In this document: positions 1,281 to 54,790 of the stretch, piece by piece
Numbering within the stretch: the stretch's first letter is position 1
How the letters are laid out: every line of letters begins with the position of its first letter
Source of the DNA: Eledone cirrhosa
Taxonomy: Eukaryota
Direction of reading: 5' to 3'
Length of the DNA: 64,000 nucleotides
Assembly (NCBI GenBank): GCA_964016885.1
Contig: OZ024744.1
Span: forward strand, 66,092,001-66,156,000
Notes under the pieces: model-generated
The model's input: only the letters and a program-made list of their open reading frames with translations
The model's database searches: none
Told to the model about the DNA's origin: nothing
Position numbers and translations under genes: made by a program

Positions 1281-1430
1281 ATATATTGAAAGAATAACAA
1301 GGACGATTGGTTACTCCTTCCTTACATTTATTGGTAGGTGACGCGCGTTTCGCCACTGATCAGTGGCGAAACGCGCGTCACCTACCAATAAATGTAAGGA
1401 AGGAGTAACCAATCGTCCTTGTTATTCTTT

Positions 1431-1438
<8 letters not shown>
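1281..1438. repeat. Perfect 158-bp palindrome centred on a hammerhead stem II (PLE-tail snap-back)
   Basis: The two 79-bp arms are exact reverse complements about TGA|TCA at 1359/1360. The axis reads GACGCGCG-TTTC-GCCACTGATCAGTGGC-GAAA-CGCGCG-TC. Confidence 0.9.
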
Positions 1439-1489
<51 letters not shown>

Positions 1490-1684
1490 TGTAGTTGTCT
1501 GTGTGTGTCCTCATTTTTGCAAAGTCTATACAAATCCACATTTCTACTCCGATTGACTTCAAACTTGCATTTATATATTCCTTGCGGTCTAAAGATATTA
1601 ACTGCAGCTTTTATTTTTCAATTTTGTGTTGTTAAAGGAGTGTTAGGCGCCGGTTATCTATCTCTGTCGCGCCCTTATAATATA

Positions 1685-2960
1685 CTAGCAGTAAAGCCCG
1701 GCGTTGCTCGGGGTCGCTCAGTAGCTGTGTTAAAGTTACAATGTTAAGTTTCTTTTTTGGCTTAAAAACTGTAGTGTCTACTGTGCAGACTTGCATGTGG
1801 TGTTTTTGATTAATATTCCCTCAACCAACAATATGCCTTATGAAGTTAAGAAAACATAACGATAACCCGAATGTTATAACAAAAGAGGATGCTGGGGATA
1901 AAAACTGCACTGGTTATTTATTAACAAAGATCGAACATGTAAACACTGCAACGCAGATAAAAACATTAGCGTAACCAAATTATCAGTTATGTCTGTCTGC
2001 ACGCCTATATCACCTCTCTGCACGACTGTCTGTCTGCACGCCTATATCACCTCTCTGCACGACTGTCTGTCTGCACGCCTATATCACCTCTCTGCACGAC
2101 TGTCTGTCTGCACGCCTATATCACCTCTCTGCACGACTGTCTGTCTGCAGGCGTATATCACCTCTCTGCACGACTGTCTGTCTGCACGCGTATATCACCT
2201 CTCTGCACGACTGTCTGTCTGCACGCCTAACGAAATTTACAGATACATATATTTTAAATAAACTTATATAATTTTTGCTTTTTTTTTACGAAATATTTGC
2301 TTGTTTTACGTAGTCTTTAAATATACTTGTTTTCAAGTAAAAATATTGTTTTAAAAGGCTTTTAAATGGAAATGAAGCAAAACGGAAGCTTAGTGTTCGA
2401 ACTGATGAATTTTGCAGGTCAAAATTTTGCTGGCTCGACAACTGTTCGTGTATTGTGTTAATGTCATTTTAAACGCTGAGAAAGCCAGCGTAAAACGTAA
2501 GACGCTCAATGTAAACAGAACAAAGGGAAATAACTCGTCACTTACGCTCAAAAATCGATACATTAGATTCGATTTCGTCACATACGGTGGGTCAATTTGA
2601 AATATTTTTTTTCCGATGTCTTCGCTAGGGCTCAATGTACAAGTATAGCAATTTCGGTGCAATTCCATCAGAGATTCTAAGAGGAGATGTGTGCCAAAAA
2701 TCGATAGACAGACAGACAACCACAGCTTTATATATATAGAACAAAGGGAAATAACTCGTCACTTACGCTCAAAAATCGATAAATTAGATTCGATTTCGTC
2801 ACATAGGGTGGGTCAATTTGAAATATTTTTTTCCGATGTCTTCGCTAGGGCTCAATGTACAAGTATAGCAATTTCGGTGCAATTCCGTCAGAGATTCTAA
2901 GAGGAGATGTGTGCCAAAAATCGATAGACAGACAGACAACCACAGCTTTATATATATAGA
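1685..2960 (-). mobile_element. Non-autonomous Helitron nested in another Helitron, with a duplicated 220-bp 5' end
   Basis: Minus-strand 5' end A|TCTATATATATAAAGCTGTGGTTGTCTGTC at 2960; 3' hairpin CCCGAGCAACGCCGGG + CTAG at 1688-1685. 2521-2740 and 2741-2960 are near-identical tandem copies. Confidence 0.8.
1990..2228. repeat. 36-bp minisatellite (~6.5 units) inside the Helitron
   Basis: Unit CTGTCTGTCTGCACGCCTATATCACCTCTCTGCACGA-like is repeated directly with no variable spacers. Confidence 0.95.
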
Positions 2961-3144
2961 TGTCTGTATGTCTGGCTGTCTGCATTACGACATTATGATA
3001 AACATTGATGACGTATTATGTTCGCTATTTTCCGTTCATTGCCAGGGAACGTCTTCACGAACCAAAGTATCGTCTTCCTGTTTTCCTTCGGTTGCAACGT
3101 TTTTCGAAATATTTACTTCTGCGTTCACAGATTGATTTTTTTTT

Positions 3145-3195
3145 AGTTTCAGAAGATCCCGTTAAGGGTGAAAGCAGCGATTCTTTGCTTAAACT
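3145..3195 (+). ncRNA. Hammerhead-ribozyme-like motif with variant core CAGAAGA (family E)
   Basis: AGTTT-CAGAAGA-TCCCGTTAAGGGT-GAAA-GCAGCGATTCTTTGC-TT-AAACT. Stems I, II and III can pair; copies at 18090-18140(-) and 20682-20732(+). Confidence 0.65.
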
Positions 3196-3926
3196 TTAAT
3201 CTGTTATTTTAATATATAATATAAACGAGGCAAGCCAGCCCAGTTGCCATTTCTTGCCAATAAACGTTAACCCTTTGTGCGCCATTCATCTAACTGTAGA
3301 CCAACAAATACGTAGCGTTGACAAGAACAATGGCGAATGAATCTTCGAGGTAAGCAGATTCCTCCCGAGCTGTTAGTTCACGCGGGATTCTCTGCTACAC
3401 CTTTTCGTATTAATACCGAACAACGTACTGCTGGTCACTCCTTCCTCCAAAAGCCGTACAAAGCGGACATGTGCATCGGGTGCAAATCTACACCAGGCCT
3501 ACGCGAAAATTTCGCAAGGGTCTGTACCGAGAGGGATAGAGAGAAAGAGTAACTTAGTGGAAAGATTGCGAATGAACTAGTGATGTAAGTAGCCTACGCC
3601 TTATTGCTATGACACTGGAACCTTCTGCCAACTTAACCTGTGACTTTCTCTTTCACATTTATTCCAATAAGCCAAAACAGACTGGAAACGCCGGGGGACA
3701 ACTATCACAGAAGGAGTATGAAAAGAAGGGGCTCAACAATATTTCTATGAACAATGCACGTAGACAGCTAAACTGTACTTTCAACTTCTTAATTTTCTCC
3801 AAATAAAACAAGTTTCCTGTCGGTATATTTTCGTGAGTCTTTAACAGGCTCTCACAAATAAACGTTTGTCATTGGAGGTGCTATTACCAATGTTCTTACC
3901 CGTTCAACGCCGGGATACACTGCTAG

Positions 3927-3983
<57 letters not shown>

Positions 3984-4323
3984 TAGGGTGTGGTAAAAAC
4001 CAGCTAGACCAAAACCCACCAGATTACTCGATACTTGGGGTATATATATATATATATATATATAAGAAAAAGGTCAAGGGCTCGTAAATACTCAACTAAC
4101 GTATTAAGTACCTTTTTTAACTGTGGCCACTTCCCGATATATATTAGGAATCCACCTATATATATATATATATATATATACATATATAAATATATATATA
4201 TAGGAGGTGAGTTTTATTGTAGCACAATAAAGCAATGCAAATATCGGATAAGTAGCACTCAACAATTTATAGGACTGGAGTATAAATAATATAAAATCAA
4301 AAGATGGTTAAAAGGGTTCCATG

Positions 4324-4394
4324 TATTTTATTATGCGCATTTCAAAAACAAATATCATCATGGGATGATATTTGCGTCCTCATCAGATAAAATA
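4324..4394 (-). ncRNA. Type I hammerhead ribozyme in PLE pLTR (family A)
   Basis: Minus strand reads TATTTTAT-CTGATGA-GGACGCAAATATCATCCCATGATGATATTTGTTTTT-GAAA-TGCGCA-TA-ATAAAATA. It has an 8-bp stem I and a short palindromic stem III typical of PLE minimal HHRs. Confidence 0.88.
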
Positions 4395-5245
4395 GGGAGA
4401 CATGATATGAAGGTTAAAAAACACTTGCGAGCAAGATTGGAAAAAAGGAAAGGAAGGGGGGGGGGGGAGAAAAGGTAAGGAAGAGGAAGAAAAAATATAG
4501 ATAGAAGAAAAAAAAATAATAAGGAAAGGATGACGGAGGAGGAGTATAAGAAGGAAGGATGAGAGAGGAGGCGAAAATGAGTGAGAGAGAGAGAGATAAC
4601 CTTTAATACTGAGAAACACTGTCTCACAGAGAAAATTGAAAAAAAACCGTTGTAAGATAATACATAATTTTAAAAAAATTAAGAAATTAAAAGTTAATGA
4701 GGTTTATGAATGGTGATGCTTATGGTTAAAGAAGGGTTTAATAAGATGTGCGAAAAGGAATTTATTAAAATGTATTATTAAAATAAAATATATTAAGAAG
4801 ATAAGGTGAATGAAGATAAGGTTAAATGAATTATGAACTTAGAGGAATTAATTAGGGTCCGAGTTTGTTTCAATATATTGTAATAGGAAAAAGTAAATAA
4901 TAGAGTTAATACGAGCATGGAAAGAGAGAAGGAAGAAAAAATATAACGTCAAAAAAATATGTTTACAAAATTTCTCTAATGGTAATATTAGTATATATTA
5001 AAAATAAAAATTTGTATGGCCGAGAATATAATGAAAATGCTATAGTGAGTTATAAGATGAATTAAGAAGTAATTGAGAAGTAAAAGTTGCAGATTAAAGA
5101 TTAGAAATTAAAAAAAGAAGAAAAATTAGGGGACCGCTAACGACATAGTATGAGTAATATTGTATAAGGTAGAAAGATGGGTATATTTAAAAAAAATATA
5201 AAAGTGTTTGAGAAAAAGATTTTAAACTAATTATGTAGTAAGATA

Positions 5246-6112
5246 TTAGCTGTATACTTTATGGAAAGTTCTATGGGATTTATACAAGCAGAGCGAAAAT
5301 AAATCCCTACGTCTATTTATTATAGAATTAAAATTAGAGATAATGGTAAATTTCTCTGCTAAGCAGAGATTACATGTTCTCGATAGGGAAGAATTAAGGT
5401 AAGAAGAGGCGTTGCAAACCTTTCTCCAAGAAATGTAGTTAATATTTTTGTACTTTAAGGACCATATGAATTCTGAGAGTGCTGTGTTAGTTCTTTTAAG
5501 TGGGTATCTAAAAGAAGAATTGTGATTATAAAATCTTGCCTTAAAGGAAGTGGAGCCAAAATAGGTAAAAGAATTAGTACCAGTTATAACCTTACATTCA
5601 TACACTAAATTTTTATCAGGACCTTGGTTACTAAGAGGACATTTAGTTCTAATAGGGCAATTGCAATTACGATTAGAGTAATTACCAGAGTTATTAGCAA
5701 GTGACCCTGTATTATTTATAGAAGGAATTGAATTGGAGAAGTTACTTACGATAGGTGCTAAAGTTTCCTGATTTAGATTGGTATTATGAACATTCGACAA
5801 AGTTGCGTTTGACGTCGTATTTAAATTTACGGAATCTAGCCTAGAGTTAACATTGACGTCGGGCTTATTATTGTTATTATTATGACGCTCAGTGTTGGAT
5901 GGATATGATTTATTATTTAATATTTTAGTATTATGTTTTGAGATAATGTTAGAGATGTTGGAAGTGGTGGAATAAGAGAATTTAATTGTATGCTTATTAA
6001 AGATCTTACTATAAATATGTGAAGGAGGGAAGCATTTATCTAAGGCCCTAAAAAATAGTTTAGGAATATTACTAATAATAGATAGAGAAAAAGGAACGTT
6101 ATACCAAATCAT
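5246..6112 (-). pseudogene. PLE C-terminal GIY-YIG endonuclease ORF fragment
   Basis: WYNVPFS..FPPSHIYSKIFNKHTIKFSYS, an Asn-rich linker, then CNCPIRTKCPL..VYECKV..YFGSTS.FKARFYNH..TALS..CNLCLAEK. Confidence 0.88.
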
Positions 6113-7111
6113 ATTTTTATATCTAGGTCTTTTCTTTATGCTTTTGGAATGCTTATAACTAACTATATTACTATAAGTTCCTCCATGATTGGTTTCTTTA
6201 TTGTATTTAATTTTGTCAGGATAACCGGCTCTGGAAAGCGCATTGTTGTAATAATTGGATTTAGCGTCAAAGATAAGTTTATTAGAAGATAGATTTGAGA
6301 TTCTTTTTTCAACATTACTGACTATAGCATTTTTAACGTTAATAGGGTGGTTAGATTTAAAATTAAGATAATTTAGATTCTCATTGTCTTTATGGTAAGG
6401 GTAATATAGGCCGGTGTCAAGATTAAGGGATATATCCAGGAAGTTAGCTAGTTGTTTTCAAATTCAATATTTAGGTTATGGTGCTTAAATAGATCAAGTA
6501 TATTATTCTTAATAATATTAAGGTTAACTAAGTTACAGTTTAAGACAGTAAAAAGGGCATCGTCACGATAAATTCCACCGCGAAGTTGAGGAATTTTCCA
6601 TTTTAAAGATTTATCTTCTTAATATATTTTATTTTAATAATACATTTTAATAAATTCCTTTTCGCACATCTTATTACACCCTTCAATATATAAACCTTAA
6701 ATAAATAGTATTCTTAATTCCTTATCCTTTAATCATAAGCATCACCATTCATAAACCTCATTAACTTTTAATTTCTTAATTTTTTTAAATTATGTATTAT
6801 CTTACAACGGTTTTTTTTCAATTTTGTCTGTGAGACAGTGTTTCTCAGTATTAAAGGTTATCTCTCCCTCTCTCTCTCTCACTCATTTTCTCCTCTCTCA
6901 TCCTTCCTTCTTATACTCCTCCTCCGTCATCCTTTCCTTATTATTATATTTTTTTCTTCTATCTATATTTTTTCTTCCTCTTCCTTACCTTTTCTTTCCC
7001 CCTTCCTTTCCTTTTTTCCAATCTCATATATCCCTCTAATTTTATTTTTCATGTGTTGATTTGACACTTCACTGCTCGCAAGTGTTTTTTAACCTTCATA
7101 TCATGTCTCCC

Positions 7112-7182
7112 TATTTTATCTGATGAGAACGCAAATATCATCCCATGATGATATTTGTTTTGGAAATGCGCATAATAAAATA
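7112..7182 (+). ncRNA. Type I hammerhead ribozyme in inverted pLTR copy (family A)
   Basis: TATTTTAT-CTGATGA-stem II-GAAA-TGCGCA-TA-ATAAAATA. Confidence 0.85.
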
Positions 7183-7212
7183 CATGGAACTCTTTTAACC
7201 ATCTTTTGATTT

Positions 7213-7293
<81 letters not shown>

Positions 7294-7691: not shown

Positions 7692-8374
7692 TCGAGTTAG
7701 AAATAGAAGACACACACATATATATATATATATACACACATATATAGGTGGATTCCTGATATATATCGGGAGGTGACCACAGTTAAAAAAGATACTTAAT
7801 ACGTTGAGTATTTACGAACTCTTAACCTTTTTCTTATACATGGGTGGCACGAACATGGCATTTTAGCCCTACCAAGTACTTAGACACGTTTCTGTATATG
7901 CTGCAGCGAAAGAATAAAGAAAAACGCCATGTCGACGCAACACACATGAAAGTTGTTTAGAACATGTGATGCCTGTGGCTGAAGAGGTTTAATGATGATA
8001 GGTCTTGCATTGGATTAATCTCATTCACTGAACAACAGTGACGGGTTTTCAAGAGAAGAAGAGGTTAACATCATTGGCTGCCATCGAGTTGCATGTTTTA
8101 CATTACTCCTAACCACACATATATGTATGTATATGTAAGTAAAAAATAAACAGAAATAAGAAAGCAAACCACACAGTACAATGAATATATATATATATAT
8201 TCAATGATATTAAATAAATTATACTCCAGAAAACTTGTCGAGTGCTCTAAATCAGTTATAAACATTTACATTTGTTGAATTACCCCAACAAATTGAATAT
8301 CCCTTTTGCTTATATATATATGAATAAATGTACAGGTATGCAGCCAGCATTATATAGACATATCCCTTAACGGT

Positions 8375-8490: not shown

Positions 8491-8650
8491 TATATAGACT
8501 TATATTGTATCGAAACATATGTTAACGAACTTTTGATAAAATTCTTAATTTTTCAATACTTTACGCCTAATATTTGTTTTTCCTATACCTTTAATTATAT
8601 ATATGAAAAGAGTCAGGACCCCGACGTCTGAGCTCCAGCCGTTTCGAACT

Positions 8651-10171: not shown

Positions 10172-12127
10172 ATATATTTCTTTATTAGCCACAGGGGCAC
10201 AAAAGAAGGGGACAAATACAAAGGGGAAAGTTTACATACAATAAAAACGTGTAAAATGTTATCACAGATGGAATTTAAAAAGTTAGTCGATTTTCCCCAA
10301 TAGAGGGAGACAGTTTATATGAGTAACACATACCCCCGAAAAAAATGTGCAACCCTCATCTCCAGGAGTACGAAGAGTTTGTACTCCCTTCCTCTCCTCC
10401 TCCTTTTCCTCAACCAACAGGCTGATATAGAGAGAAGGCCCATTCACTCGGGCCATTCTCGCCACTTTCACCCACCTTTCATAAAACTTGATGGGGTACA
10501 GCACCTCTCTCTCCATCCTGATTCTTCTTCCAAAGTGGTATTTGAAAAAAAGAATCAGTTGTTGGCCGGAGAGAAAGGTGTCTGACCTCAGCCCTTTCAA
10601 CCTTGTCCACCATACAACCTCTTTCGTCATAGCTATCACACAAAGGAAAACCGCCTCTCCTTCGTTTTTGAAGGAGGGTGGCGGTTTGATCGTGACAATG
10701 GACTCGGTGGTCAACTGGACTGGTCCCACCCGCGACAATAGTCGTTCTACATAGCCCCACAGGTCAGTCACGCCCGGGCAGTGTATGAATGCGTGCGCGA
10801 CGGTTTCTTCGTCTTGCACGCACCTCGGACAGATCTTTTTTGCAGGGTCCCTGCCCGGGCGCCCATGTCTGTAGAGCTTGTCTCGAACTGGTAGAGCTCC
10901 TCGGTAGCACTGCCAGGCCAGGGACTTTTGGAAGTTGTCCATCGGTCCCGGGCGGAAGGTCCTACCGAACAGACTGGCCAGTTCATCTTCCTCTACGCCT
11001 AGAGTTTCACCGAGCGCGTCGTCGCACTTGCTGCGGACTAACCCTCTATAGAATGACGAAGTGGAGTCTCCACTGATTGCCGGGTCCGCCTGCCAGAGGG
11101 CTGTGAGCGCCTGAGCACATTCGATGTGCCAGTCGCCCATTTTCCTCGGTCTTTGCTTGACCCAGGACTGCAGCTCGGTCAGCGAGACGAGTCGTGGGAA
11201 GGTTCGCCTCACGAACGGGGCCCACACCGGTTGTCCGGTGAGGAATACGTAGAGATGCCGCAGCCTGAGCGCGTGTTTGCGCATCGTCAACCACGGCATC
11301 CGCAACCCTCCGTTAGAAGGGTATTGGCAGCAGATGGATCTTCTCACCAAAGGAGTCCGCCTCTTCCAAAGGAATCGGAAGAGCGCGCGCTCCATTTTGG
11401 CGAGCGTTTTGGCTGGACAAGGCACGACGGTCAAGCGGTAGTAGATGGCGGACGCTATAAAAGTGTTCGTCACCTCCGCTCGACCTTTCAAGGATAGTTT
11501 GCACTCGGCCCACTTCTGGGTGAGTGCAAACACCTTGGCCGTCACTTCGTTCCAGTTCTTCTCCACCTGGAGGTCCGGACCAAACCAGACCCCGAGCAGC
11601 TTTACCGGTCCTTCCGTCCAGCGTCCGACGACGCCATCGGAAGGCATCGGTCTGCCTCTCCACGATCCGAGTTGCAAACCGATGGACTTGTCCCGGTTCA
11701 GCTTCGCTCCTGTGACACTTTCGTATTCCTTCAGTAAGGTGCCGACTTCCTCGATTTGCGAGGCATTCGACACCATTACTGTCACGTCGTCGGCGTAGGC
11801 CGACGCCGCTTTCCGCAGTCCCGGTTCCAGAGGGATGCCCTGCAATAGCTCCAGCTTCCGCAGTAGTGGCTCGAGAGTCAGTACGTACAGAAGGGAGGAG
11901 AGAGGGCATCCCTGTCGAATGGATCGCGTAATATGGAACGGCTCCGAGAGGAAGCCGTTCACCTTGACCCTTGAGCAGATGTTGCTGTTGTGCATTGCAG
12001 CAATCCAGCCCCTGAACACGGGTCCGAAGCCTGCCGCCTCGAGCACCGCATCCAGGTAACGATGGTCAACCCTATCGAAAGCCTTAGACTGATCCAAGTT
12101 GATCAGGGCCCCACCGAAGCCGGGTGG
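10172..12127 (-). mobile_element. Tx1/L1-clade non-LTR retrotransposon, 5'-truncated ORF2 (RT + zinc finger), inserted in (TATC)n
   Basis: LDQSKAFDRVDH, RQGCPLS, YADD and CPRC..ETVAHAFIHC in an uninterrupted frame. The 3' UTR ends GTGGCTAATAAAGAAA. (TATC)n lies on both sides, and ORF residues from 12128-12337 are microsatellite/flank. Confidence 0.95.
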
Positions 12128-14672: not shown

Positions 14673-15200
14673 TGTGTGTGTGCGTGTATGCCCGTGTCTG
14701 TGTTTATATCCAGTGTTTGTTTATATCCCGTAACTGAGCAGTTCTAAAAAAATGATCGATAAAACAAATACAAGACTTGAAAAAATTAGTAATAGCATCG
14801 ATTTGATCGACCTAAAGACTTCTAGTTTGTTTCGCGGCAAGGCCGCAGTGCTATGATTGAATGAAAACCATAGGTTATAGATTCCATACACTGGTGGTTT
14901 TCACTGTTTTATTGATGGCTCACTATCTCTCTTTAGTGTGTTACCTTTTCAACATATTGTATTTTACAAAGCTCTGGATTCCTTTTTCTTTGAGCACATT
15001 ATTGACAGGGAATAACGAGAGTCTATGGCTCCGTTAATTTATCGTCATATATATATATATATATGTCCAGAATTAGCCGTCGAAACGGCTTGAGCTCAGC
15101 CGTCGGGGTCTTACTTGTTCCTATATATATATATATATATATATATATAACCTACACATATATAACCTATCAAAGTTATGTATATATATATATATATATA

Positions 15201-15478
15201 TATAACAAAGAGAGTGTGGTAAGATACCAGGTGGACCATAACCCACCAGAGTACTCAATACTTAGGGTAGTAGAGTGGGTAATAGGAAAAGAGTCAGGAC
15301 CCCGACGGCTGAGCTCCGGCCATTTTGACAGCTAAATCCGGATCTAGCTGTCGGAATGGCCGGAGCTCAGCCGTCGGGGTCCTGACTCTTTTCCTATTAC
15401 CCACTCTACTACCCTAAGTATTGAGTACTCTGGTGCGTTATGGTCCACCTGGTATCTTACCACACTCTCTTTGTTATA
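15201..15478. repeat. ~278-bp palindrome centred on hammerhead stem II, flanked by a 20-bp direct repeat
   Basis: Axis ATCC|GGAT at 15339/15340 lies inside GACAGCTAAATCCGGATCTAGCTGTC, followed by GGAA-TGGCCGGAGCTCAGCCG-TC-GGGGTC. TATAAC(C/A)TATCAAAGTTATG occurs at 15161-15180 and 15483-15502. Confidence 0.88.
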
Positions 15479-15699
15479 TATATATAACATATCAAAGTTA
15501 TGGTGCTGTTATAAAGTCAGACATGGTCTGGGTCATCACTGGCCGAAACCTATCGAAGTTATGTCTGTATATATATCTCCGCTGTGACCCGTCTATTTCG
15601 TTCTTACTGCTTCCTCTTTCTCTGTATCTTTCACCTCCCTTTACCCTCTCTAACAGTCACTCTCTCTGTTAGCCTCTTCCTCACCCTTCACTCACTCAC

Positions 15700-16030
15700 T
15701 CTCTGCTACTACCTCTCCTACTTCCTTTCGTTTGACCTGTGCGGAATTCCTTCCTTGCTCACATTTCGACGAGGTTTGATAGTCTTTATTCTCTCTCGTT
15801 CACGATTTCACCGAACTTATATTCATGGAAATCTGGGACTTGACTCTTTCTTCCTCACTTTTCGTTGCATTACCATCTTTGATTGTTTACAGTCTCGCTC
15901 GTTCCCCTTATTTACGTGTCCCAACGACTTTCTTTAGCCGTTGCTCGCACCAACCGGAGGTATATGGTCTTTAAAGCGATGAAATACCGATGATGGTTGG
16001 AAGATCATTGATGAAGGACTAACTTTATTC
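15700..16030 (+). repeat. Dispersed PLE-tail-like repeat ending at C(A)TGATGAAGGACT; copies at ~20757-20990 and ~25360-25640
   Basis: Three homologous copies share TTTACGTGTCCCAACGACT..GCACCAACC..TGATGAAGGACT. Confidence 0.7.
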
Positions 16031-16099
16031 ATATATATATATATATGAAAACAATATGGTGTAAGACAAAACAAAGGAGAGACACAAAATAAAAACCTA

Positions 16100-17189: not shown

Positions 17190-17991
17190 TTCGTTTCTGA
17201 ATTTGTTTAGCAAGATTCTTTATCTGAAATCGTGTGTTGAAACCGATATTGTTATACTTTGGGAGGGTCATGTTGCCAATAAGAAACACACGCACACAAC
17301 ACACACACAGAAACAAAATGGCGTAGGACAGAACAAAGGAGAGGCACAGAAACAAAGAAAGGAATCCCCAGTCACTGAAGAACTATGACTATATATAAAC
17401 AACTATCTGGTTGTGGAACCAACCAACCAACCAGAAATTTATAAATTTATAAATATATAATAAATTGAAGTGAAAGAAACTGGTGCGTGTGTTTCTTATT
17501 GGCAACATGACCCTCCCAAAGTATAACAATATATATATATATATATAGAGAGAGAGATTACAGTAATCAAAGTTCAGTTTAAGTCATTTATTTGCTTACA
17601 ATTGTTTCCTCCAAACCGAGGTTTGGATTCTTCGGAGCAACTATTTATAACATACTTGACCTCCTTTTCAACCCAAGAGACACATAAAACATATGTGTCT
17701 CTTGGGTTGAAAAGGAGGTCAAGTATGTTATAAATAGTTGCTCCGAAGAATCCAAACCTCGGTTTGGAGGAAACAATTGTAAGCAAATAAATGACTTAAA
17801 CTGAACTTTGATTACTGTAATCTCTATATAACTGCTCTGTATAACAACTGATGTTATTGCATTGAGCTATTTAACTTACTGGTAATAGGATAGTAATTAA
17901 AGACTATCTCTCACTATTTAGGGTTTGTGTATATATAATATATTACCATCAAAGGTTTTATTGCATACATAACCATAAATAGTACCCTTAA

Positions 17992-20110: not shown

Positions 20111-21261
20111 ATAGAATAAATAAAAAATAAATAAAAGAAAGATATCTATGTATCTCTGTGTATATATAAACATCTTATGTATGTATGTATGTATGTATGT
20201 ATGTATGTATGTATGTATGTATGTATGTATGTATGTTATCTCTTTCTCTTAATTTCGAGTATATTTTTTTGTCCGGCCACCTTCCTGGTGGCAAGGTTGT
20301 AAAAGAAAAGAAATTGTCATCCCTTGAATCGCAAGAATGTTTTGCAAATTTTGAAGGTGCCTGCTATCGCAGCCATTTGTAGACTATGAATTAGGGAGCT
20401 GCGCTATAAACATCTTATGTATGTATGTATGTATGTATGTATGTATGTATGTATGTATGTATGTATGTATGTATGTATGTATACAGTAGATTATAATAAA
20501 CAACCACAGGCACAAATACATACACATATAAATATACACTTACATACCCCCACCCACACACACACATATATATATATAGTAATAATAATAAATGTGAAGA
20601 CTAAAATTCGAAGAGGGCTCGACAAGGATAATATATATATATATAATTATATAAAACCATAGAGCAAATATTTAAATAAATAGTTTCAGAAGATCCCGTT
20701 AAGGGTGAAAGCAGCGGTTCTTTGCTTAAAGATTAATCTGTTATTTTAATATATATTCTCTCTCGTTCACGATTTCACCGAATTCATAGAAATTTGGGAC
20801 TTGACCCCTTCTTCCTCACTTTTCGTTGCTTCACCATCTTTGTTTGTTTACACTCGTGTCCCCTTTATTTACGTGTCCCAACGACTTTTTTTAGCCGTTG
20901 CTCGCACCAACCGGAGGTATATGGTCTTTAAAGCGAGGAAATACAAATGATGGTTGGAAGATCACTGATGAAGGACTAACTTTATTCATATATATATATA
21001 TATATATATTTATGTTTGTGTGTGTGTGTGTGTGTATAAACTTAAGGAAATTAGAACGGAAACAAGGGAAAACGAAAAACAATTTTTAAGGCAAAACCTT
21101 AAAAAATGTTTTAAAAAAATAAGTGTACAAACGAAGGACACAGAACTCCATGGTCATCAGCCGTGAGATGGACTTAGGCAGTTTCGACCCCCTACCAACG
21201 GTCAGTGAAATAAGTGACGAGAGACAAAACATTAATTAATCGCAATATATATATTTAAGTG

Positions 21262-21899: not shown

Positions 21900-22367
21900 T
21901 GAGAGATGGTGAGAGCAGGAGAGACGGAGGCAGTGAAAGTGGGAGTTTGGTTCCTTTGTGTTCTGACCTGGTGTATATGAGAGATGGTGAGAGCAGGAGA
22001 GACGGAGGTAGTGAAAGTGGGAGTTTGGTTCCTTTGTGTTCTGACCTGGTGTATATGAGAGATGGTGAGAGCAGGAGAGACGGAGGCAGTGAAAGTGGGA
22101 GTTTGGTTCCTTTGTGTTCTGACCTGGTGTATATGAGAGATGGTGAGAGCAGGAGAGACGGAGGTAGTGAAAGTGGGAGTTTGGTTCCTTTGTGTTCTGA
22201 CCTGGTGTATATGAGAGATGGTGAGAGCAGGAGAGACGGAGGCAGTGAAAGTGGGAGTTTGGTTCCTTTGTGTTCTGACCTGGTGTATATGAGAGATGGT
22301 GAGAGCAGGAGAGACGGAGGTAGTAACAGTGGGAGTCTGGTTCCTTTGTGTTCTGACCTGGTGTATA
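21900..22367. repeat. 60-bp minisatellite (~7.8 units)
   Basis: Unit GAGAGATGGTGAGAGCAGGAGAGACGGAGG(C/T)AGTGAAAGTGGGAGTTTGGTTCCTTTGTGTTCTGACCTGGTGTATAT-like; the C/T site alternates between units. Confidence 0.95.
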
Positions 22368-24255
22368 TGTATATGTTTCACGGACACGCTATCTCAGATG
22401 AGCCATGATCGAACAGACTCATGGTCACAAGTTTTCCAGCCGTGACTATAGACTATATCGCCTGTTGTTTATTGATGTATTTTTTTAATATATCATGTAC
22501 TACATTTTCTTATATAATTTTAAGTAAATTTGGCTGCTAAGTTAATCAATCGACAACATGGTTTCCATCATTTATACGTGATGGTGATAATGATTGTGAT
22601 GATGACTGGTGGTGGTGGTAACGGCGGCGGTGACATCGATGCCAATAATGGCAATTGAAGCTACTAACAGAAAAAAAAAAGAAACAACAGCAACAACAAC
22701 AACAACAACAAAACCAAGAACCTTTAAATCTATGAACAAAATTCTAGGAATTATAAATCTTGATGGAAATCTCTTAAAAAATGACTGAATCTAAAGAAAG
22801 CTAAGCAAGGATAATTTCACCAGCCATTAAATCGTCTTCATTATTTGACAACCCAACGTCCATATATTATTCCAGCTGTAAAATAGGTTTTGGATATTAG
22901 CTGTAATATACCATTGGTGTGGTGCTAACATAAAAGAACCAGAATAAATAAATACAGAACCAGAATAAATAAATAAATATATAAATAAATATATAAATAA
23001 ATAAATAAATATATAAATAAATAAATAAATATATAAATAAATATATAAATAAATATATAAATATATAAATAAATATATAAATATACAAATAAATATATAA
23101 ATAAATATATAAATAAATATATAAATCAATATATAAATAAATAAATATATAAATGAAGATGTCATGCTTCACTCACTAACAGCTAAAAGTCGAATTCATA
23201 CTGGAGAGAATGGAAGAATTTGTAGAATAGAAAAACCACATTTGGAACAATAGATACACGGATAACAGAAACCATACTGAGAATCATAGTTGAACAATCG
23301 ATAGAAATAAATTCTTTTCTTGGACATTAACATATCAGATTACGGGGCGGCGCGGTGTGGCGTGGTATGGTGTAGTGTGCTGGTGCTGGTAGTTGTTGTT
23401 GTGGTGGTGGTGGTGGTGGTGGTGTGAGAGTTTGGTGGTGGTGTGTGGTGGTGATGTGTAGCGTGGTATGGTGGTGCTGGTAGTTGTTGTGGTGGTGGTG
23501 GTGGCAGGAGAGTGTGGTGGTGGTGTGTGCCGTGGCGTAGTATGGCGTAGTGTGGTGGTGGTGTGTGAGTGTGGTGGTGGTGTGTGGCGTGGCGTGGTAT
23601 GGCGTAGTGTGGTGGTGGTGGTGGTGGTGGTGGTAGTGTGAGAGTGTGATGGTGGTGGTCGTGGTGGTGTGCGTGTGTGGGTGGTTGGTGAGGTTCGGGT
23701 GGTTGGAAAATGGCTTTCATAGCAATAGATAGAAAAGATATTGCAGAAAAATAACGGCAAGTTATGTCATTGCTCGTAAGATAATATCAATTGAACATAT
23801 ATATTATATGAAGGGATCAACTTCAACAGCCATATTCTTCACTTTGCGTGTGAAGCACCAGCAGGTGTATAAGATGTGTGAGTGGCTTAGTCTTATTGTG
23901 TGAATGTGCATGCGTCTATGTGCGTGTAAGTGTGCATGTCTGCGTGTGTGTATGTGTGTAAACGCGTGTGGTGTGTGTGTGTGTGTTTCTGTGTACATGT
24001 ATGTGTGTGTCTGTGTATGAGTGTATATGTGTGTGTGTGCATGTGTATGTATGTGTGTGTGTGTGTATGTGTGTGTGTGTATATATCTGTGTGTGTGTGT
24101 GTGTGTGTGTAGTAATTTGTGTTTTGTGAAGAGGGTCAGCCAATTGTTCTGTGTTGAAGAGCTGAAGAACTAAGTAGTTTCTGGCCATGAAAAGAAAAGG
24201 GCTAACTTTGAAATTCAGCATGTGTGAGTGTGGTGTGTGTGTGTGTGTATGTGTA

Positions 24256-24286: not shown

Positions 24287-25687
24287 GTGTGTGTGTGCGT
24301 ATGAGTGTGTGTGCGTCGTGTATGTACTATGTACGTACTTAATGTATGTATGTATGTATGCATGTATGTAGGAACTAGCGTGCGTGATCACCGACGAGAG
24401 ATCATCAGAGGTTGTAAGAGCAAGTATTTCTAAAGGTTTCTGAAGGCTTCGGTTGTGTATTGTTGATGAATTGAGCGAATTCTCATATATATATATATAT
24501 ATATATATGCATGTATGTACGTACGTACGCATGCATATATATAAAGCAGTACGCTAGCAGCTGAAGTGTGTGATATTATATCTGATATTAGCTGAAGTTA
24601 TATCTGTATAAATACAAAATGTGTAACCAACGTGAAATATATACACATATCTAATATGTAGGCATGTAAACATGCCAGAAAATACGATTGTCCTGTAAAT
24701 TGGAAAAAATGATCGATTTTCGGATCTAATTGAATCCTCACCAGAAGACATGTATATCACCCAATAAGCCTCAAAGAAACATGTACTAGATAAGTACATA
24801 TTCAAATTTGCTGTTAGTATTATTCTGAAATGAACGAACTAATTTGCATATAATTAGTGCTTGTGTTGGTAATTAAGATATATATATATATTAAGAAGTG
24901 CGCTTGCAGTCGAAATGTATGAGAAAGTTATATCTGTATGAATAAAGAATGTTGTAAACGAGACTGCCCCAATGTGTGACATACACATATTTAATATGTA
25001 GGTATGTAAACATGCTAGAAAATACGAATTACCTTGTAAATTGAAAAAAAAAAAATGATAAATACACACACACATATATTCTCAGGAAAAAGGGAAAACA
25101 ATGTGATGGCATAACTGCTCCAGTTAGTGGAGAAATCTATGAGTATGTAGGTGTGGCGAGCAACATATATTCTAGCCATTAGAAAAAAAAATGCATACTT
25201 CACTTTTTTCTCTCTCTCTTTCGTCTGCGACTTCACAAAACTTACGTTTACTGAATTCGTAGAACAGACCCCTTTATCTTCTTCTTCTTCTTCTTCTTCT
25301 TCTTCTTCTTCCTTTTCTCTCCTTTTTCTCTCTCTCTTTTTTCCCCCCCGTCAAACTTGGGCGAAATTCTTTCCTTGCTCACATTTCAACCAGGTTTGAT
25401 GGTCTTTTGTCTCTTGTTCACGATTTCACAGAGTTTATATTCATAGAGATCTGGGACTTGTCTATTTCTACTCACTTTCCGTTGCTAAAACTTTTTTGTT
25501 GTTACTCTGGCGTCCCCCTTTATTTACGTGTCCCAACGACTTTTTTTAGCCGTTGTTCGCACCAACCCGAGGCATATGGCCCTTAAAGCGATGAAATGCC
25601 CAGGACGGTTGGAGGGTCACTGATGAAGGACTCACTTTTTCATATGTATCCCATTTGCAACGCCGCAGCTCCATTATTATCATATTT

Positions 25688-25772: not shown

Positions 25773-26061
25773 GAGTATATGTTGGTTGTATACCAACACC
25801 TCAGTATGCAGGCTGCAGCACTATGATTCCAGTTCCTCAGTGAAATAACAACCAGGAACTGGGCATATCAGAGTATTGACAATATTATACACCTCAACAA
25901 CATATGTACTTGTCTATACCACACTAATTCGGACTGCCTGAAGAGGTCACAGCCAAAGAAATATATATAGCAGCAATAAACGACATTTTAAATATATATA
26001 GCAGCAATAAACGAACATTTGACTTTTTATTTAACTTTATTTTATATATATATATATATAT

Positions 26062-26681
26062 AGTAAGACCAAAGAATCGTTATATATATACACACACACA
26101 CACAAATTAACTCGAAAATATAGTTTTGAGACGTGATTGTATTAGGATTCTCAGGAAAATGGGACCACTCGGCGTATGGAAGCTGTTAGAAACAACAAAA
26201 TACCGCCGAGGAGGCGTTGGGTAAAATATTAGCTGGAAGGACAGAGATCAGCGGCTATATGTGAGTTGGCTGGAAGGAAGGAAGAGAAGATAGGAAGGAG
26301 GAAATAGAATGGATGAAAGTGAACAGGTCACAAACATTAAAATATGCTCATCGGATCTCAACCTCCAGCACTTTCAACAATTCGTCGAAACTGCAGGAGG
26401 TTGAGATCCGATATTTGTGACCTGTTCACTTTCATCCATTCTATTTCCTCCTTCCTATCTTCTCTTCCTTCCTTCCAGTCAACTCACATCTAGCCGCTGA
26501 TCTCTGTCCTTCCAGCTAATATTTTACCCAACGCCTCTTCGACGGTATTTTGTTGTTTCTAACAGCTTCCATACGCCGAGTGCTGCCATTTTCCTGAGAA
26601 TCCTAATACAATCGCGTCTCAAAACTCTATTTTCGAGTTAATTTGTGTGTGTGTATATATATATAACGATTCTTTGGTCTT

Positions 26682-26684
<3 letters not shown>
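26062..26684. repeat. ~620-bp inverted repeat (arms ~300 bp) with TTTC-hairpin-GAAA axis, TA-flanked
   Basis: The arms match with a few substitutions and one indel. Centre CTTTC-AACAATTCGTC-GAAAC at 26371-26391; nested inside an outer inverted pair 25107-25207/26760-26860. Confidence 0.88.
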
Positions 26685-26740
<56 letters not shown>

Positions 26741-28539
26741 TCTTGAATCATCCCTCCATCGAAAGTGAAGTATGCATTTTTTTTCTAATGACTAGAATAT
26801 ATGTTGCTCGCCACACCTACATACTCATAGATTTCTCCACTAACTGGAGCAGTTATGCCAACCCATTGTCGAATTAATAATCGATCATCTGCGAAGTCAA
26901 CGGTGTTCACGACACCGAGCTTATCTAATTAAACTGATGGTCGCTGCATGAGCTACTGCTTATTATGAGACAAGCAGGATTGTTCTCGAAGCTTACTCAT
27001 GTAGAACTGGCCTTTTCTGTTAGACTATCCTATGATAGCCATACCAGAGGCACCTCATGTATGATGTGGATCTTCATTACACAAGTCAGTCTTACAAAGC
27101 CAGCAATTTGCCCCCAAATTGCTGGCTTTGTAACAATGCTAGAAAGAATTATTTACGAGGAGCCATAACACGTTGGCTTTCCTGTAACCACTGATGCATG
27201 TCGGTCTTGACTGCGATGACGGATAAAGGTCTGGACAGGATAACTTTTTATCAAGTTTCAGTTAGGTTGAGTTAAGTTATGTTCCAAGTACCAGCTAAGT
27301 AATGTGAAAGTAACTGTGATTGAGGAATTCTACTTTACAGTGAGTGAATATGAATTTTTCTTCTGAAGATAACTAACCCAGCATCGATATCCCAATGATG
27401 AGGGGCTGAGATGGTGTGCAGAGAGGACGTTCCCTTTTGAGTGAGAGCCCATGCACAGACCACATCGTGGTCCCAGCCGACAGAATGGCGAAAACGTTGT
27501 CCCAGAGGATAACGAGGGGGACACGGTGGAATAGCCATTCCAACTCGCGGGTGTCGCTCCTACGGGTGGTTGGTCAATTCCACCCTCCGATAGTAGTTAG
27601 TAGGGAAGTGATCTGAGACCAAGAACACCATAAGACTCCACTGCTACAAGTCGCTCATCTTGGATAACAACACGTGGTGACAGCACGTTCTCCGGTACCA
27701 ACCTGATCACTCTGGCCACAAAACCTCGGCACCACCGCTCGTAATACTAAGGCGCGGAAGATGAGACCAAATACCAGGCATTGATTAATCGATTCCTATT
27801 TTTGTGCGAGTGGTCACCATTGAGACTAGCGGTGTCCTCTGTCACCGGACTTCCGTGATCCTCCGCCAAAATCGGGACGAGAACATCACGCCTGAGGAAA
27901 GAACTGATGAAGGTGGAATGGCTGATACAGTGAATAACGCTAGCTGTTCTCCATGCCAACATTTCCACCATCTTATCTAGAGGACACAACTGGGATGTGC
28001 CACCCACTTCCCATTTAGACACGCCCTATATTTTCTTTTTCATCAATAAAATTTCATAGTGAAATATAAGAAAAAATATTCTGTTTACAAATTCTTTAAC
28101 ATAGTCTATGAATTATATAAAGAAAGAAATCATTATAATAATTGTTTCTGCTTTTGGCACAAGGCCAGCAATTATTCCAGTGTATTACTGGTACTTTATT
28201 TGATCGACCCCGTAAGGATGAAAGGCAAAGTTAACCTCAGCGGGATTTGAACTCAGACCATAAAGGGCCGTAACTCTATGCTGCAAAGAATGACGTCCGA
28301 CCCGCTACCGATACTGCCAATCCACCACATATACATGTTTCATAAATACACACGCATATGTGTGTATTTATGCATATGCATATATACGTGTGTGTGTGTG
28401 TACATTTATATATGTATATATACGTGTGTGTGTGTGTATTTATGCATATGTATATATATGTGTGTGTGTGTGTGTGTGTACATGGATATATAAATATAGA
28501 TATATGTATATGTGTGTGTATATATATTTGTGTGTGTAA

Positions 28540-36157: not shown

Positions 36158-37825
36158 TACCACTACTACTCCATCATCATCTTCTTCTTTACCCACTTAT
36201 CCCTGGGCGAGTAGTGGCAGCAGAGTGCTCAAGCACACCTTCCAGTGGGTTATGTCAGAAACAGCCGTCTCTGATTGATCCAGCTGGAGTGCCAAGCTAG
36301 ACCATTGAGCTCATGGATATAATCCAATCATCTTGCTCGTGGTCTACCCCTGGGCCTTCGGTTAGTTGGTTTTATTGAATCTTTGCCTTAAATTTGAATC
36401 AGTAGGCCTAGATTTCAGGCATATTGGAAGCTGTCTAAAATATGTTTTTTATGACAACTAGATAATATCTTGTATCTCTGGTTAAGCGATATCGTTGACT
36501 ATTTAAATATCTGAAATCTTTTAGTTACGCACAAGCTGCAGTTTGGGGATCCATAGAATGAAGTTGATGTGGCTTTGTCAATGATGCTCCATGTTATTGG
36601 TCTACATTCTGATCCAAGGTCACTGAGTTCCCAGAGGGATTGGGGCAAGAATGTAGAATCATCTTTGTACCTTGTTCTGAATGAGGGTAGGTGCTGGCAT
36701 ATCGACTCTTGAATCGGTTCATGGTGTGTTCCATCTGATTCATTTCAATACTATCTTGGAGCTCAAAATATTACTACTTTGGAAAGACAACATCTTCTGA
36801 ATAGATAGGCAAGGAAATTTCTGTATCTACAGGCTGACTGTTGGAGGGAGAACTATCTATGTGAGTGTGTTTTCAACTGTTGCATGTCATCTAGGTAATC
36901 TGGGTAATAATAGCTGAACCTAATGTTATTGGTGTTGAAAAGTGTATTGTATATTAGTGTGTAATTGGAATGTTATCTTACAAGAGGAAAAATTTCCACT
37001 CTAGCCTCAAGCACAGGTTAATCAACTTTTTCAAAGGTGAATTGGGAATAATTAACGAGTGAATTCTTGACAAAATTAACATGAAAATTAAGATAACAAA
37101 ACTAGAACAATTACACTGGAGTGCCACCATTATTAAGTGGTTTCGTGGTATGAATTTGATATTATCGACCTCTACATAGCCAGAAGATAGGGTTTAACCC
37201 TTTCTTCTGGCTATGTGTTTCAATTAATTTTGAAAATAATTAAAACTTTGGTGGAATTTTGTTAAATAATTAACTTTTTCCTTAGGAAGCTGTTTTTGGC
37301 AGCATAACTTAAAAAAAAAATGGCTTTATATGGAATTATGTTGGTAGGTTTTGATATTAATGTGAGCATTTTAAAATAAGCAGCTTTCTATCATAAAATC
37401 AGGGGTGGTTTCAAGTGTGATGGTATCAAAAGGATTAAAGGGTTGGATTAAATGCTTTGTGTTATTTTTTTCTGAATCTCTACACTCTTGAGTTTAAATC
37501 TTGCAAGATGAGCTTTGTTTTTTCATCTTTTTGGAGTTGATGAATAAAGTATCAACCCAGTGTAGGCTTCAAATCCCGCAGAGGTTAACTTTGCCTTTCA
37601 TCCTTACGGGGTCGATAAAATAAAGTACCAGTAATGCACTGGGTAATTGCTGGCCTTGTGCCTAAAGTAGAAACAAGTATCTTTTACAGCCATTTGTGTT
37701 CTGAGTTCACTTGTGACACACGTAGTGCCAACATGTGTTAGCTTTTGCTTTCTTTTCCTTGAATAACATCAATGGTCTGGAGAGGAGAGTCATGCTGTCA
37801 CTAGTGATTACTGCGGCCTCACATA

Positions 37826-38276: not shown

Positions 38277-39349
38277 AATCCATTAGGCTTGAAAAAATAA
38301 ATTATACCTTTACGCCACCTCCCCACCAAACAAAAAACAAAACAAACAAAACCATTTGATCACATGGGCATTCAAACACTGGCTTAATGACCAATTAGAT
38401 AGACTATTTCTTGTTTGACCATACTTTGATAGCTGTGTATTTGCTAATCCTTTTGTATAGGAATAGGTAATGAAAATTGCTCAGGTCCCAAAAGAACAGA
38501 GGCAAAACTTTGTACATGTCCAAAGACCAAAAACTATCCAAAAGGTCACCAAAGTATGATATTGTGAAACTAAAATGCAGTGAAAGTTGAAACAGCTTAA
38601 ACTTGACTATAGGGTTTACATATACGAGGAAAAAAACTGAGCATTAGAGGCATCAGATGTAACAGAGTATATTTGAAGTGGCATGGAGATGTGAAGTGTA
38701 TGGATGATATCTGTTGAGAGGAGAAGTGCCAAGAGATTCTATTGGAAGGAAGCTACAGAAGAGGAAAATCTGATCGAAGGGAGTAAAAGTGAGAGCAAGT
38801 CTCAAAATGCTATACCAAACAACATGGAAAAATAGACATAAAAATGACGATGATGATGATGATGGTGATGATGGTGGTGGTGTTGGTGGTGGCAGTGATT
38901 ATGATAATGGTGATGATGATGATATACAATAAATAATTATGCAAAACACAGCATATATTAGAAGATTAAAGATAAATTTAATGTAGATGGCTATAACTAC
39001 AGTTTTTGAATTAGAATTTCTGCTATGAAAAAACAAAACAAAAAAGAAAACTGAAGTTTCTACTATTTCATCTGTACAGAGGAAAACATAAGAGCTTATC
39101 TTTATACATTTTAGAGATTATCGACAATAATAATTTCTGAAACAAGAGAAGATAATCTCTTCTTTTTCAAATTGGTGCTCATAATGCTGTTATTTTTACG
39201 TCTAGTTTTCCATACTGGCATGGGCTGTAAGGGACTGTTTGAGGCAGTATTTTATAACCAGATGCTATAAAATACTGCCTCCTTTTTTTACATGTTATGA
39301 GGCTTGGTTTTCTATGACTGGATGCCCTTCATAATGCTAACCACTTTTA

Positions 39350-40050
39350 CAGGGTGGATTGGATGTTCTTCGCTACGGCATCAGTATGACCACACTACAA
39401 GATACACTGGGTGCTTTTTGTCATGGCACTAGTATGACCACCTCACAAGGTGAACTGGCTTCTTTCTGTTATGGTACCAGTAAGAACACCTTACAGGGTG
39501 AACTAGGTGCTTTTTGCCATGGCACTAGTATGACCACTTTACAAGGTGAACTGGGTTCTTTCTGGTATGGTACCAGTAAGAGCACCTTACAGGGTGAACT
39601 GGGTGCTTTTTGTCATCACACCAGTATGATCACCTTACAGGGTTGACTGGGTGCTTATTGTCATGGCATCAATTGAGGGTGAACTGGGTGCTTTTTGGCA
39701 TCACACCAGTATGATCATCTTACAGGGTTGACTGGGTGCTTATTGTCATGGCATCAATTGAGGGTGAACTGGGTGCTTTTTGGCATCACACGAATAGGAT
39801 CATCTTACAGGGTTGACTGGGTGCTTATTGTCATGGCATCAATTCAAGGTGAACTGGGTGCTTTTTGGCATCACACGAATAGGATCATCTTACAGGGTTG
39901 ACTGGGTGCTTATTGTCATGGCATCAATTCAAGGTGAACTGGGTGCTTTTTGGCATCACACGAATAGGATCATCATACAGGGTTGACTGGGTGCTTATTG
40001 TCATGGCATCAATTCAGGGTGTACTGGGTGCTTTTTGCCATGGCACTAAC
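39350..40050. repeat. Minisatellite (~40-bp subunits, ~78-bp higher-order unit) grown inside an RTE-3'UTR-related repeat; diverged sister array at 41590-41970
   Basis: Repeated GGGTGCTTTTTG..CATGGCAC..CCTTACAGGGTGAACT. Both arrays are preceded by CTGGATGCCCTTCATAATGC. Confidence 0.85.
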
Positions 40051-43082: not shown

Positions 43083-44477
43083 TTATACTAGGTTATCAGT
43101 GATGTTTTGGGGGTGGTTTGAATTAACATTAATATATCTAAGGGACTCGTTAGGTTTGTGGTACGGGTAATAGAGGGAAGTATCTTGGTCAAGAGTGACA
43201 GCCAAGAAGTTGGCCCTAGTCAAATTAGATTCTATAGTTATACTAAATCCTAGATTAGAGAAGAACGAGCTTAAGTTTTTCCGAAACCCATCGGTGGTTC
43301 TGGGGGTAACCTTGTGCAGGGCGAAGAGGCTGTCGTCTCGGTATAAACCTCCGGTTAGGCCGGTAAAGAGGTTCTTCAGGTGATGTAGGATGTACAAGCC
43401 CACAAGGTCGCTAATTTCAGCCAAGTCACTCGCTCCCATACTAACGTCAAATGGGGTCTGAGATTTCTTGTTGATCCAGTAAGATCCATCGTGGTATAGA
43501 AAGGTCTTACGAGCGTGGAGGATAACAACTTGCTCAGCATCGGTAATGGTGGTAAAATTCCTGGCAAAGTTAATTGCGTCCTTCAGGAGGGGCTCCGAGA
43601 TAGAGGCATAGTAGTTATCTATGTCGAGTTGCAGGAAGCGAGTGTGGTGTTTGTCGGGTAATTCTTGGAACCAGGATATTGCCTCAGATGTTCTGCTCCA
43701 GAGTTGAAATGGTGAGGCAGCCCGCAATGATGGTAGAACTCTATCCAGGATCTTCTTACTGATAGAGCCGATGTCTGAACGAGTGGGGTTGATAAGTCTG
43801 ACTGACGGTTTGTTGAGGAAGTTTCCCTTATGGTCCTTCAGGGTAAAGTGCGGGGTCTTTACCCTTAAAGGTTCGGTTCGGTCGTGTAATTTAAGGGACT
43901 TGGCGATTTCTTTTCCGGCCGCGTTTGTCTCAGTCAGTGCCATCTCTATTACCTTTTTGTAGGTGGTCGTGATGGCATTTTTTGCCAGCTTATTGTACGT
44001 CTGTGGGTCTACCTCATAAACGTTTTTGGTTTTATCGGAGGAGACATAAAGATTAGGGGATTTTTTTATATTCCTCAATTCGGCATTTAAGTTGGCCTGG
44101 AATGGTGTGGTGGCTCTACGGAATTTTATATCTTTGATCATCTTGAAGAGGTCTTCTTCAAATGGTTGGAGTAGGCTGTTGGTGGGTGGTGTCTTATTCG
44201 TTTTGAAGCCGAACTTCTCATCATTGGCAGATGCTACATCAGGGTTGTCGAGGAAGAAGGCCCTCCATCTAATTCTCTTGATGAACTCGTCGGTACGACT
44301 GATGAGTGTTTTTAGGTAAAGTTTCCTTTGAGGGATGGGGATGTTCTTCATGGAGACATCAAGATCGAGTTTGGTCAGCATGGTTTCTTGATGATGGTTA
44401 TAAGGGGCACAGAGAGTGCTAAAAGGTACGTTATTCCGGGTTGAATCGGAGGTAACCACAGTAAGTAAGGTACTCAA
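43083..44477 (-). pseudogene. PLE reverse transcriptase ORF (premature stop)
   Basis: 464-aa ORF with the PLE RT motifs listed above. Confidence 0.92.

Positions 44478-51834: not shown

Positions 51835-54790
<2,956 letters not shown>

Follow-up and report, generated by a model that had tools for sequence, protein, structure and literature searches.

Palindromes have been described at the head-to-head junctions of Penelope-like elements (PLEs) in Adineta vaga, where those of Pen2 and Pen3a were interpreted as products of self-priming (PMC3846280), and (TA)n targeting together with inverted, 5′-truncated PLE copies is reported in PMC8557442 and likewise in PMC8969392; here and below, statements on published work refer to the portions of these sources that were accessible. 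The PLE hammerhead consensus consists of a helix II 3′ strand ending in C, the series GAAA-N-palindrome-N-U-H, helix I and an AU-rich stretch (PMC4209133, Fig. S3), and the same source presents a dimer model for the palindromic helix III and records hammerheads on opposite strands 100-700 bp apart. The PAc protein cleaves AT-rich DNA and extends both of its strands, with synthesis initiated at a stem-loop internal to the RNA, and cleavage-dead hammerheads still support PLE insertion in vitro (PMC11167929). Non-LTR retrozymes occur as monomers or as head-to-tail tandems with whole ribozymes (10.64898/2026.07.22.740005). Penelope-like families are known from Octopus vulgaris, in a report whose main text, in its accessible part, mentions neither hammerheads nor palindromes (PMC13282606). 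Both the origin of the inverted PLE ends and the function of the hammerhead are posed as open questions in PMC8557442 and PMC11167929.

Head-to-head PLE insertions are already known, and the point of some interest at the locus analysed here is the place of the join. We consider that positions 1281-1438 of the window, the 64,000-nucleotide stretch of DNA under analysis, are probably what a hammerhead-bearing Penelope-like retrotransposon left behind in an abortive insertion, head to head. Most likely, two head-to-head PLE tail ends were joined inside the hammerhead, which leaves the ribozyme unable to cut.

The palindrome and its arms

The sequence from 1281 to 1438 equals its own reverse complement, with 79-bp arms and zero mismatches, and its centre falls between 1359 and 1360 with no spacer, just as the earlier note had claimed in describing a perfect 158-bp palindrome without a loop. 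The outermost 6 bp of either arm read ATATAT, which is self-complementary by nature, so that the informative arms are 73 bp and the informative palindrome 146 bp (1287-1432). These 146 bp alone look element-derived and the outer ATATAT, the right copy of which runs into (AT)26.5, fits a (TA)n target. Symmetry ends immediately outside the arms, with unique sequence on the left and the (AT)26.5 run (1433-1485) on the right. The window contains no N bases and, once AT runs are removed, the next-longest perfect even palindrome in these 64 kb is 16 bp. GATC lies at the centre of the palindrome, the central 40 bp of which are 65% GC, and its RNA is predicted to fold into a single hairpin (-143.6 kcal/mol, z -30; 0 of 200 shuffles equally stable). 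What can be read directly is a 146-bp zero-spacer palindrome in a TA tract, in which each arm carries the 3′ half of a hammerhead followed by AATAAA and a short tail, the core is absent and the architecture recurs nearby. The features of the locus are as follows.

1281-1286, unstranded: ATATAT, presumably what is left of the (TA)n target on this side, or else a 6-nt copy of target sequence
1287-1359, minus strand: left arm, 73 bp, read as a PLE pLTR 3′ end running leftwards; exact mirror of the right arm
1352-1367, unstranded: central 16-bp self-complementary joint at the hammerhead helix II position (DNA hairpin -4.8 kcal/mol)
1360-1432, plus strand: right arm, 73 bp, read as a PLE pLTR 3′ end running rightwards
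1363-1379, plus strand: hammerhead 3′ half, with helix II 3′ strand (1363-1367), GAAA (1368-1371), palindromic helix III (1371-1378), then UC
1380-1392, plus strand: helix I 3′ strand (from 1380, partner missing) and AATAAA (1387-1392)
1399-1431, plus strand: 11-bp stem-loop at the outer end of the element (z -3.2; 1 of 200 shuffles equally stable)
1433-1485, unstranded: (AT)26.5 microsatellite, likely insertion target
1486-1690, plus strand: start of a dispersed repeat, other copies of which begin TC(TA)nAAA (E 2e-4 to 2e-3 to three copies)

Read outward, each arm presents 8 nt ending in C, GAAA, CGCGCG, TC (1378-1379), ACCTACC, AATAAA, a stem-loop and (TA)n, and the motifs that had been quoted for the right arm sit where they were placed (16-mer at 1352-1367, GAAA at 1368, CGCGCG at 1372 and ACCTACC at 1380). 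The earlier hammerhead reading of the arm is borne out by its fit to the 3′ half of the PLE consensus in the accessible Fig. S3 of PMC4209133. C11.1-GAAA and N-U-H with helix III are present at 1367-1379 and in the mirror; the 3′ half of a hammerhead-type pLTR motif with a palindromic helix III fits the consensus and its 5′ half is missing. The would-be cut site lies after 1379 and the hammerhead 3′ half is mirrored at 1340-1356 on the minus strand. The helix III 8-mer is self-complementary, with a predicted duplex energy of -13.3 kcal/mol, in agreement with the suggestion that a palindromic stem III would suit dimers; self-complementary helix III is also found in complete hammerheads of the window. 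A terminal stem-loop like that at 1399-1431 was absent from all four of the other ends that were folded, which counts against the PLE reading. When the 52,759 unmasked bases were dinucleotide-shuffled 60 times, C-GAAA-palindrome(6 or more)-T-H turned up on average 0.47 times per shuffle. The strict motif would lie within 15 nt of a given centre about once in 10,000, and its loosest C-anchored form 8 times in 10,000, figures that are optimistic because the motif was picked after the locus had been seen and because the real window has 2-6 times as many of the looser forms as the shuffles have.

Neither strand of 1200-1520 contains a CUGANGA core or a variant of it (C/T-TGA-N-G/A-A). Of the helix I that would close the core there is only the 3′ strand, its complement at 1333-1339 being the mirror arm with no core after it. 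The GGTAGGT at 1333 and the left half of the proposed helix II each mirror the opposite arm of necessity. The parent predicted in the earlier note was over-specified in its 7-bp helix I, since helix I of published PLE hammerheads spans 2-6 bp and includes wobble pairs by our own reading of the accessible part of PMC4209133, and its inclusion of the left half of helix II is not supported, because those 8 nt are forced by mirror symmetry and carry no evidence on the parent. Within the central joint (1352-1367), parental origin is certain for 1360-1367 only. The central CTGATCA was rejected as a catalytic core because of a G8C change, which inactivates the PAc hammerhead (PMC11167929, accessible part), and because helices I and II are lacking; a two-part ribozyme using CTGATGA at 1002 was rejected by eye, with a helix I of 2 bp and no helix II. 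As the core is missing, the locus is not a ribozyme, and it is predicted to be inert as one, CUGANGA being absent and any transcript being expected to form a 79-bp duplex.

Zero mismatches in 73 pairs have a probability of 0.27, 0.11 and 0.05 at 1.8, 3 and 4% arm divergence, respectively, and flawless arms are not unique to this locus, since a longer flawless pair lies 16 kb away (17553-17825: 134-bp arms, zero mismatches, 5-nt spacer). The description of the palindrome as very young or gene-converted is therefore too strong: its youth holds and the stronger wording is not required.

No second copy of the arm was found in the 64-kb window, where blastn, a 3-mismatch pattern search and nhmmer returned only the two arms at meaningful scores, nor did the window yield a homologous copy linking the arm family to a PLE ORF. 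As no copy with an upstream core was found there, the assignment of this family to the PLEs rests on motif and geometry rather than on homology. The best similarity of the arm to another hammerhead-bearing end, that of the 60401 family, was not significant, as 95 of 18,645 background windows did as well or better. Rfam gave no match at the gathering threshold across the whole window and, ranked by E-value over 700-2000, 12 matches that all fall far below threshold and include no hammerhead; this silence is uninformative, as the complete hammerheads at 7120 and 19303, both used as controls, were missed too. The palindrome found nothing among phages and plasmids by blastn. An exact 20-mer scan of GTDB gave four matches in bacterial contigs of 64-71% GC, which were dismissed as chance, the similarity being confined to the seed region with no upstream core. 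A 12-mer from the locus was not found in published papers, and 10 sequence motifs had no match in the supplement of PMC8557442, which may not hold nucleotide sequences as text.

The locus sits in repeat-rich eukaryotic DNA, with 127 rows of tandem repeats in the window and many TA, CA and TG runs, a repeat landscape that would seem to be octopus-like. To its right, 1486-3929 is made up of nested dispersed repeats that start with TC(TA)nAAA, end in a hairpin and CTAGT, and enclose tandem arrays of 37-bp and 220-bp units; we take these repeats to be Helitron-like. A decayed frame at 2-331 is presumably retroelement-like, and a long open frame on the minus strand at 10283-12124 contains RVT_1 and zf-RVT domains (a non-LTR retrotransposon). 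Minisatellites with open frames, one of 78-bp units (6 copies, 97%) and one of 48/85-bp units, lie at 21900-22369 and 39377-40041, and a 3-kb degenerate (TA)n array and a 2.9-kb CAC/CAA-rich array at 51836-54785 and 61087-64000. Short imperfect hairpins of 41-55 bp occur outside TA runs at 27092-27133, 37174-37216, 39241-39281 and 58947-59001.

Fold-backs and probable Penelope-like elements elsewhere in the window

Masked self-comparison of the window detected 13 close inverted pairs, five of which, 1281-1438 included, are fold-backs of 100 bp or more. The arms of the four further long fold-backs are 100%, 97%, 89% and 73% identical. These are given here together with the largest PLE-type structure.

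4281-7225, unstranded: 5′-truncated PLE-type ORF remnant (5246-6457, minus strand) between head-to-head pLTRs, ending in (TA)n
15193-15486, unstranded: fold-back without spacer, lying in (TA)n; 4 of its 135 pairs are mismatched, and a decayed GAAA lies 13 nt 3′ of the centre
17553-17825, unstranded: fold-back with identical 134-bp arms and a 5-nt spacer, centre about 80 nt 5′ of GAAA
26043-26703, unstranded: older fold-back, 89-91%, centre about 6 nt 5′ of C-GAAA-CTGCAG
60275-60471, unstranded: fold-back with 73% arms, GAAA-CAATTG-TC and AATAAA in one arm

All five fold-backs touch a TA run, both arms stop at the same base in each of the four well-kept ones, and GAAA-palindrome-TH is present in the arm or in sister copies of four of the five. 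The earlier note overlooked that 1281-1438 is one of a class of PLE fold-backs with further members in this window. The join lies within 13 nt of GAAA in two of the five and doubtfully in a third (26043-26703), which has a G where the hammerhead requires U and is therefore doubtful as a hammerhead derivative; the centres of the 17553 and 60275 fold-backs are not on helix II. At 15193-15486 the GAAA has decayed differently between the arms, and sister copies of this fold-back at 15066-15121 (plus strand) and 8601-8647 (minus strand) keep C-GAAA, a long near-palindrome and TC. These solo sisters are truncated 16 and 2-7 nt 5′ of GAAA, respectively, and the 15066 copy retains 3 nt across the 15193 fold-back centre, which is weak support for a native palindromic tip. 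In each of its arms the fold-back at 17553-17825 has an entire hammerhead-like motif (core variant CCGAAGA at 17743 on the plus and 17635 on the minus strand), with a 5-bp helix I, a long helix II, GAAA-CAATTG-TA and a U4C core change, and would be a better candidate for a cleavage assay than 1281-1438.

A descriptor search identified four complete hammerheads in the window (4386 minus, 16104 plus, 18809 minus and 19303 plus), and further ones were read by eye at 7120 (plus), 7687 (minus), 16277 (plus) and 17743 plus/17635 minus. Two pairs, 4386/7120 and 18809/19303, belong to repeats arranged head to head; 4386 and 7120 lie on either side of the PLE-type ORF of 4281-7225, where each pLTR has a complete hammerhead (cores at 4386 minus and 7120 plus) built on GAAA-TGCGCA-TA. 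These hammerheads have a long helix II, and an extension of about 90 nt is present at one outer end of the structure only. The ORF remnant includes an asparagine-rich stretch, as in A. vaga (PMC3846280, accessible part). A second inverted pair (4058-4185 and 7718-7841, 87.5%) encloses 4281-7225, which suggests nested insertions into TA runs. No Pfam family reached threshold for the PLE-type ORFs of the window. Among relatives of the 5246-6457 remnant, 14 of 22 contain PF26215 and one of the four scanned has a sub-threshold GIY-YIG match, while a second PLE-type ORF remnant, at 43083-44516, resembles eukaryotic RT clusters carrying PF26215. We assume that both ORFs belong to PLEs also from their YRDD motif and the CxC-x5-C linker ahead of a GIY-YIG-like stretch.

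Measured from GAAA, AATAAA lies at +19 and (TA)n at +65 in the arms of 1281-1438. Matching pLTR ends in the window reach (TA)n at 55-61 with AATAAA at +16 (17770), at 68 with +21 (60401) and at 55 with +11 (7163); other pLTR ends, with (TA)n at 122, 141 and 267, do not match. Three copies of one repeat (15735-16046, 20754-21003 and 25355-25649) end about 17 nt past a core, which reads TTGATGA in the first copy and CTGATGA in the others; two of the three are at (AT)n, and this 5′-half-hammerhead repeat is the converse of the arms of 1281-1438. Some Naiad PLEs are marked ‘HHR_half_core’ in the accessible part of PMC8557442, in whose supplement the repeat has no sequence match. At 17286-17534 a copy of the 19303 hammerhead family has helix II and GAAA deleted and bears an inverted terminal piece of 46-50 bp.

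Proposed origin of the palindrome

The arms of 1281-1438 point outward from the centre, a head-to-head, 5′-truncated arrangement with the polarity reported in the accessible part of PMC3846280, and the insertion lies in an AT-rich/(TA)n target. Only the end product is before us, and we infer from it all five steps of the following route. The GIY-YIG endonuclease of the element would nick the (TA)n tract; the RT would prime on the nick and start on the RNA about 53 nt beyond the hammerhead cut site, on its 3′ side; the cDNA would halt in helix II when only about 73-80 nt long; the self-complementary helix II end would prime the second arm; and repair would fix the product. In the fourth step, either one cDNA would fold back on itself or two equal cDNAs, one per nicked strand, would anneal tip to tip, and a single locus cannot separate the two. 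Since PAc extends both strands and starts at an internal stem-loop, its activity allows either variant. A simple snap-back should keep the loop of the parent, whereas the centre of 1281-1438 has no spacer, and this leans towards tip-to-tip cDNAs or towards families with a self-complementary loop. Such helix II loops are found in one of 56 published hammerheads by our own reading of the accessible part of PMC4209133 and, by eye, in none of the four complete hammerhead families of the window. By either variant, the product of the insertion cannot transpose on its own.

A broader and speculative proposal, which we regard as unlikely, is that hammerhead helix II has a second, non-catalytic role in PLE retrotransposition, as the site at which the RT stalls and as the cDNA joint that primes the second arm. 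Families with a self-complementary tip might then, though we doubt it to the same degree, leave palindromes that have no spacer and a centre 6-16 nt 5′ of GAAA. This pattern is seen in two of the five fold-backs, in one of four when the selected 1281-1438 is set aside and in two of four when the doubtful 26043 is then counted; the two solo sisters of 15193-15486, with their truncation points 16 and 2-7 nt 5′ of GAAA, also conform to it. The clustering at helix II is only suggestive, because two of the five fold-backs are centred away from helix II and because short 5′-truncated copies would in any case be expected to end close to the 3′ hammerhead.

An improbable alternative to the abortive insertion is that a solo 5′-truncated PLE end was already in place when host replication or repair made an inverted copy of it, folding back beside the unstable (AT)n through a template switch or a hairpin-capped break, in which case the palindrome would say nothing on retrotransposition. 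The (AT)26.5 run does abut the arm, solo truncated copies of the comparator family exist, and fold-back inverted duplications are a general outcome of repair (10.1101/2024.12.14.628481, accessible part). However, none of the four well-kept fold-backs has unique flanking sequence in its duplication, which goes no further than the end of the element, and five such structures in 64 kb all touch TA runs, four of them with hammerhead pieces.

The zero spacer, zero mismatches and central GATC could also point to an artefact of the assembly or library (a fold-back read, an inverted chimera or head-to-head ligation at the GATC), which is very improbable, as the unique flanks differ between the two sides and the neighbouring fold-backs show graded decay (0, 3, about 10 and 27%) and other centres (CCGG, AATT and a 5-nt spacer), unlike the products of one enzyme or one read artefact. 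We attach equally little probability to a MITE or fold-back DNA transposon with a TA target duplication and a hammerhead-like motif by chance: inverted arms do lie between TA dinucleotides, but 1281-1438 is single-copy in the 64-kb window, no sequence family is common to the five fold-backs, solo arms truncated at the inner end occur, and the probability of the motif is about 1e-4 to 1e-3. Least probable of all is a functional hairpin-RNA locus, such as an siRNA or miRNA precursor, in which selection or gene conversion would maintain the perfect match of the arms, for although a 79-bp duplex would form and AATAAA is present on both strands, there is no Rfam match at threshold, youth alone explains the arm identity and the locus sits among decayed repeats.

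As a single locus, a dead retrotransposon fragment of described architecture matters little, and its value is as a mechanistic footprint. If true, a joint role for helix II would give poorly active minimal hammerheads a function independent of cleavage and would explain the palindromes at PLE inverted junctions; should junctions pile up at helix II genome-wide, both the origin of the inverted ends and the role of the hammerhead would become testable. Such insertions would seed perfect double-stranded RNA and break-prone DNA, and automatic annotation will mis-call them as MITEs or hairpin RNAs.

Comparison with known systems

The non-LTR retrozymes (10.64898/2026.07.22.740005, accessible part) are like 1281-1438 in being short non-coding derivatives of PLE pLTRs with hammerhead sequence. 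The present locus differs from them in being head-to-head, coreless and single-copy in the window. Twin priming of L1 copies two different stretches of one RNA, whereas both arms here represent the same stretch and end at the same base. The 5′-inverted (twin-primed) L1 insertions (10.1101/2024.12.14.628481, accessible part) are nonetheless alike in that both ends of the nicked target prime cDNA, with inversion as the outcome.

Closer are the minimal type I hammerheads of PLEs from Aedes, Drosophila willistoni and Saccoglossus (PMC4209133, accessible part), which resemble the arms in C-GAAA-N-palindrome-N-U-H, a short helix I strand and an AU-rich 3′ flank. Unlike them, 1281-1438 is missing the core and the helix I 5′ strand, and its halves are locked in a duplex. 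No published statement placing a PLE junction at helix II was found in the literature searched, a set mostly without subscription papers, and this silence is weak evidence that the helix II junction is a new observation.

The Pen2 and Pen3a insertions of A. vaga differ from the present locus in three respects. Their junction palindromes measure 18 and 38 bp, whereas here the whole insert is a palindrome of 146 bp; no ORF or full pLTR remains at 1281-1438; and its junction is at hammerhead helix II, a feature that the accessible parts of the A. vaga reports do not mention. The two systems are nevertheless alike in head-to-head polarity, a palindromic inverted junction, an AT-rich/(TA)n target and strong 5′ truncation (PMC3846280; scheme in PMC8557442).
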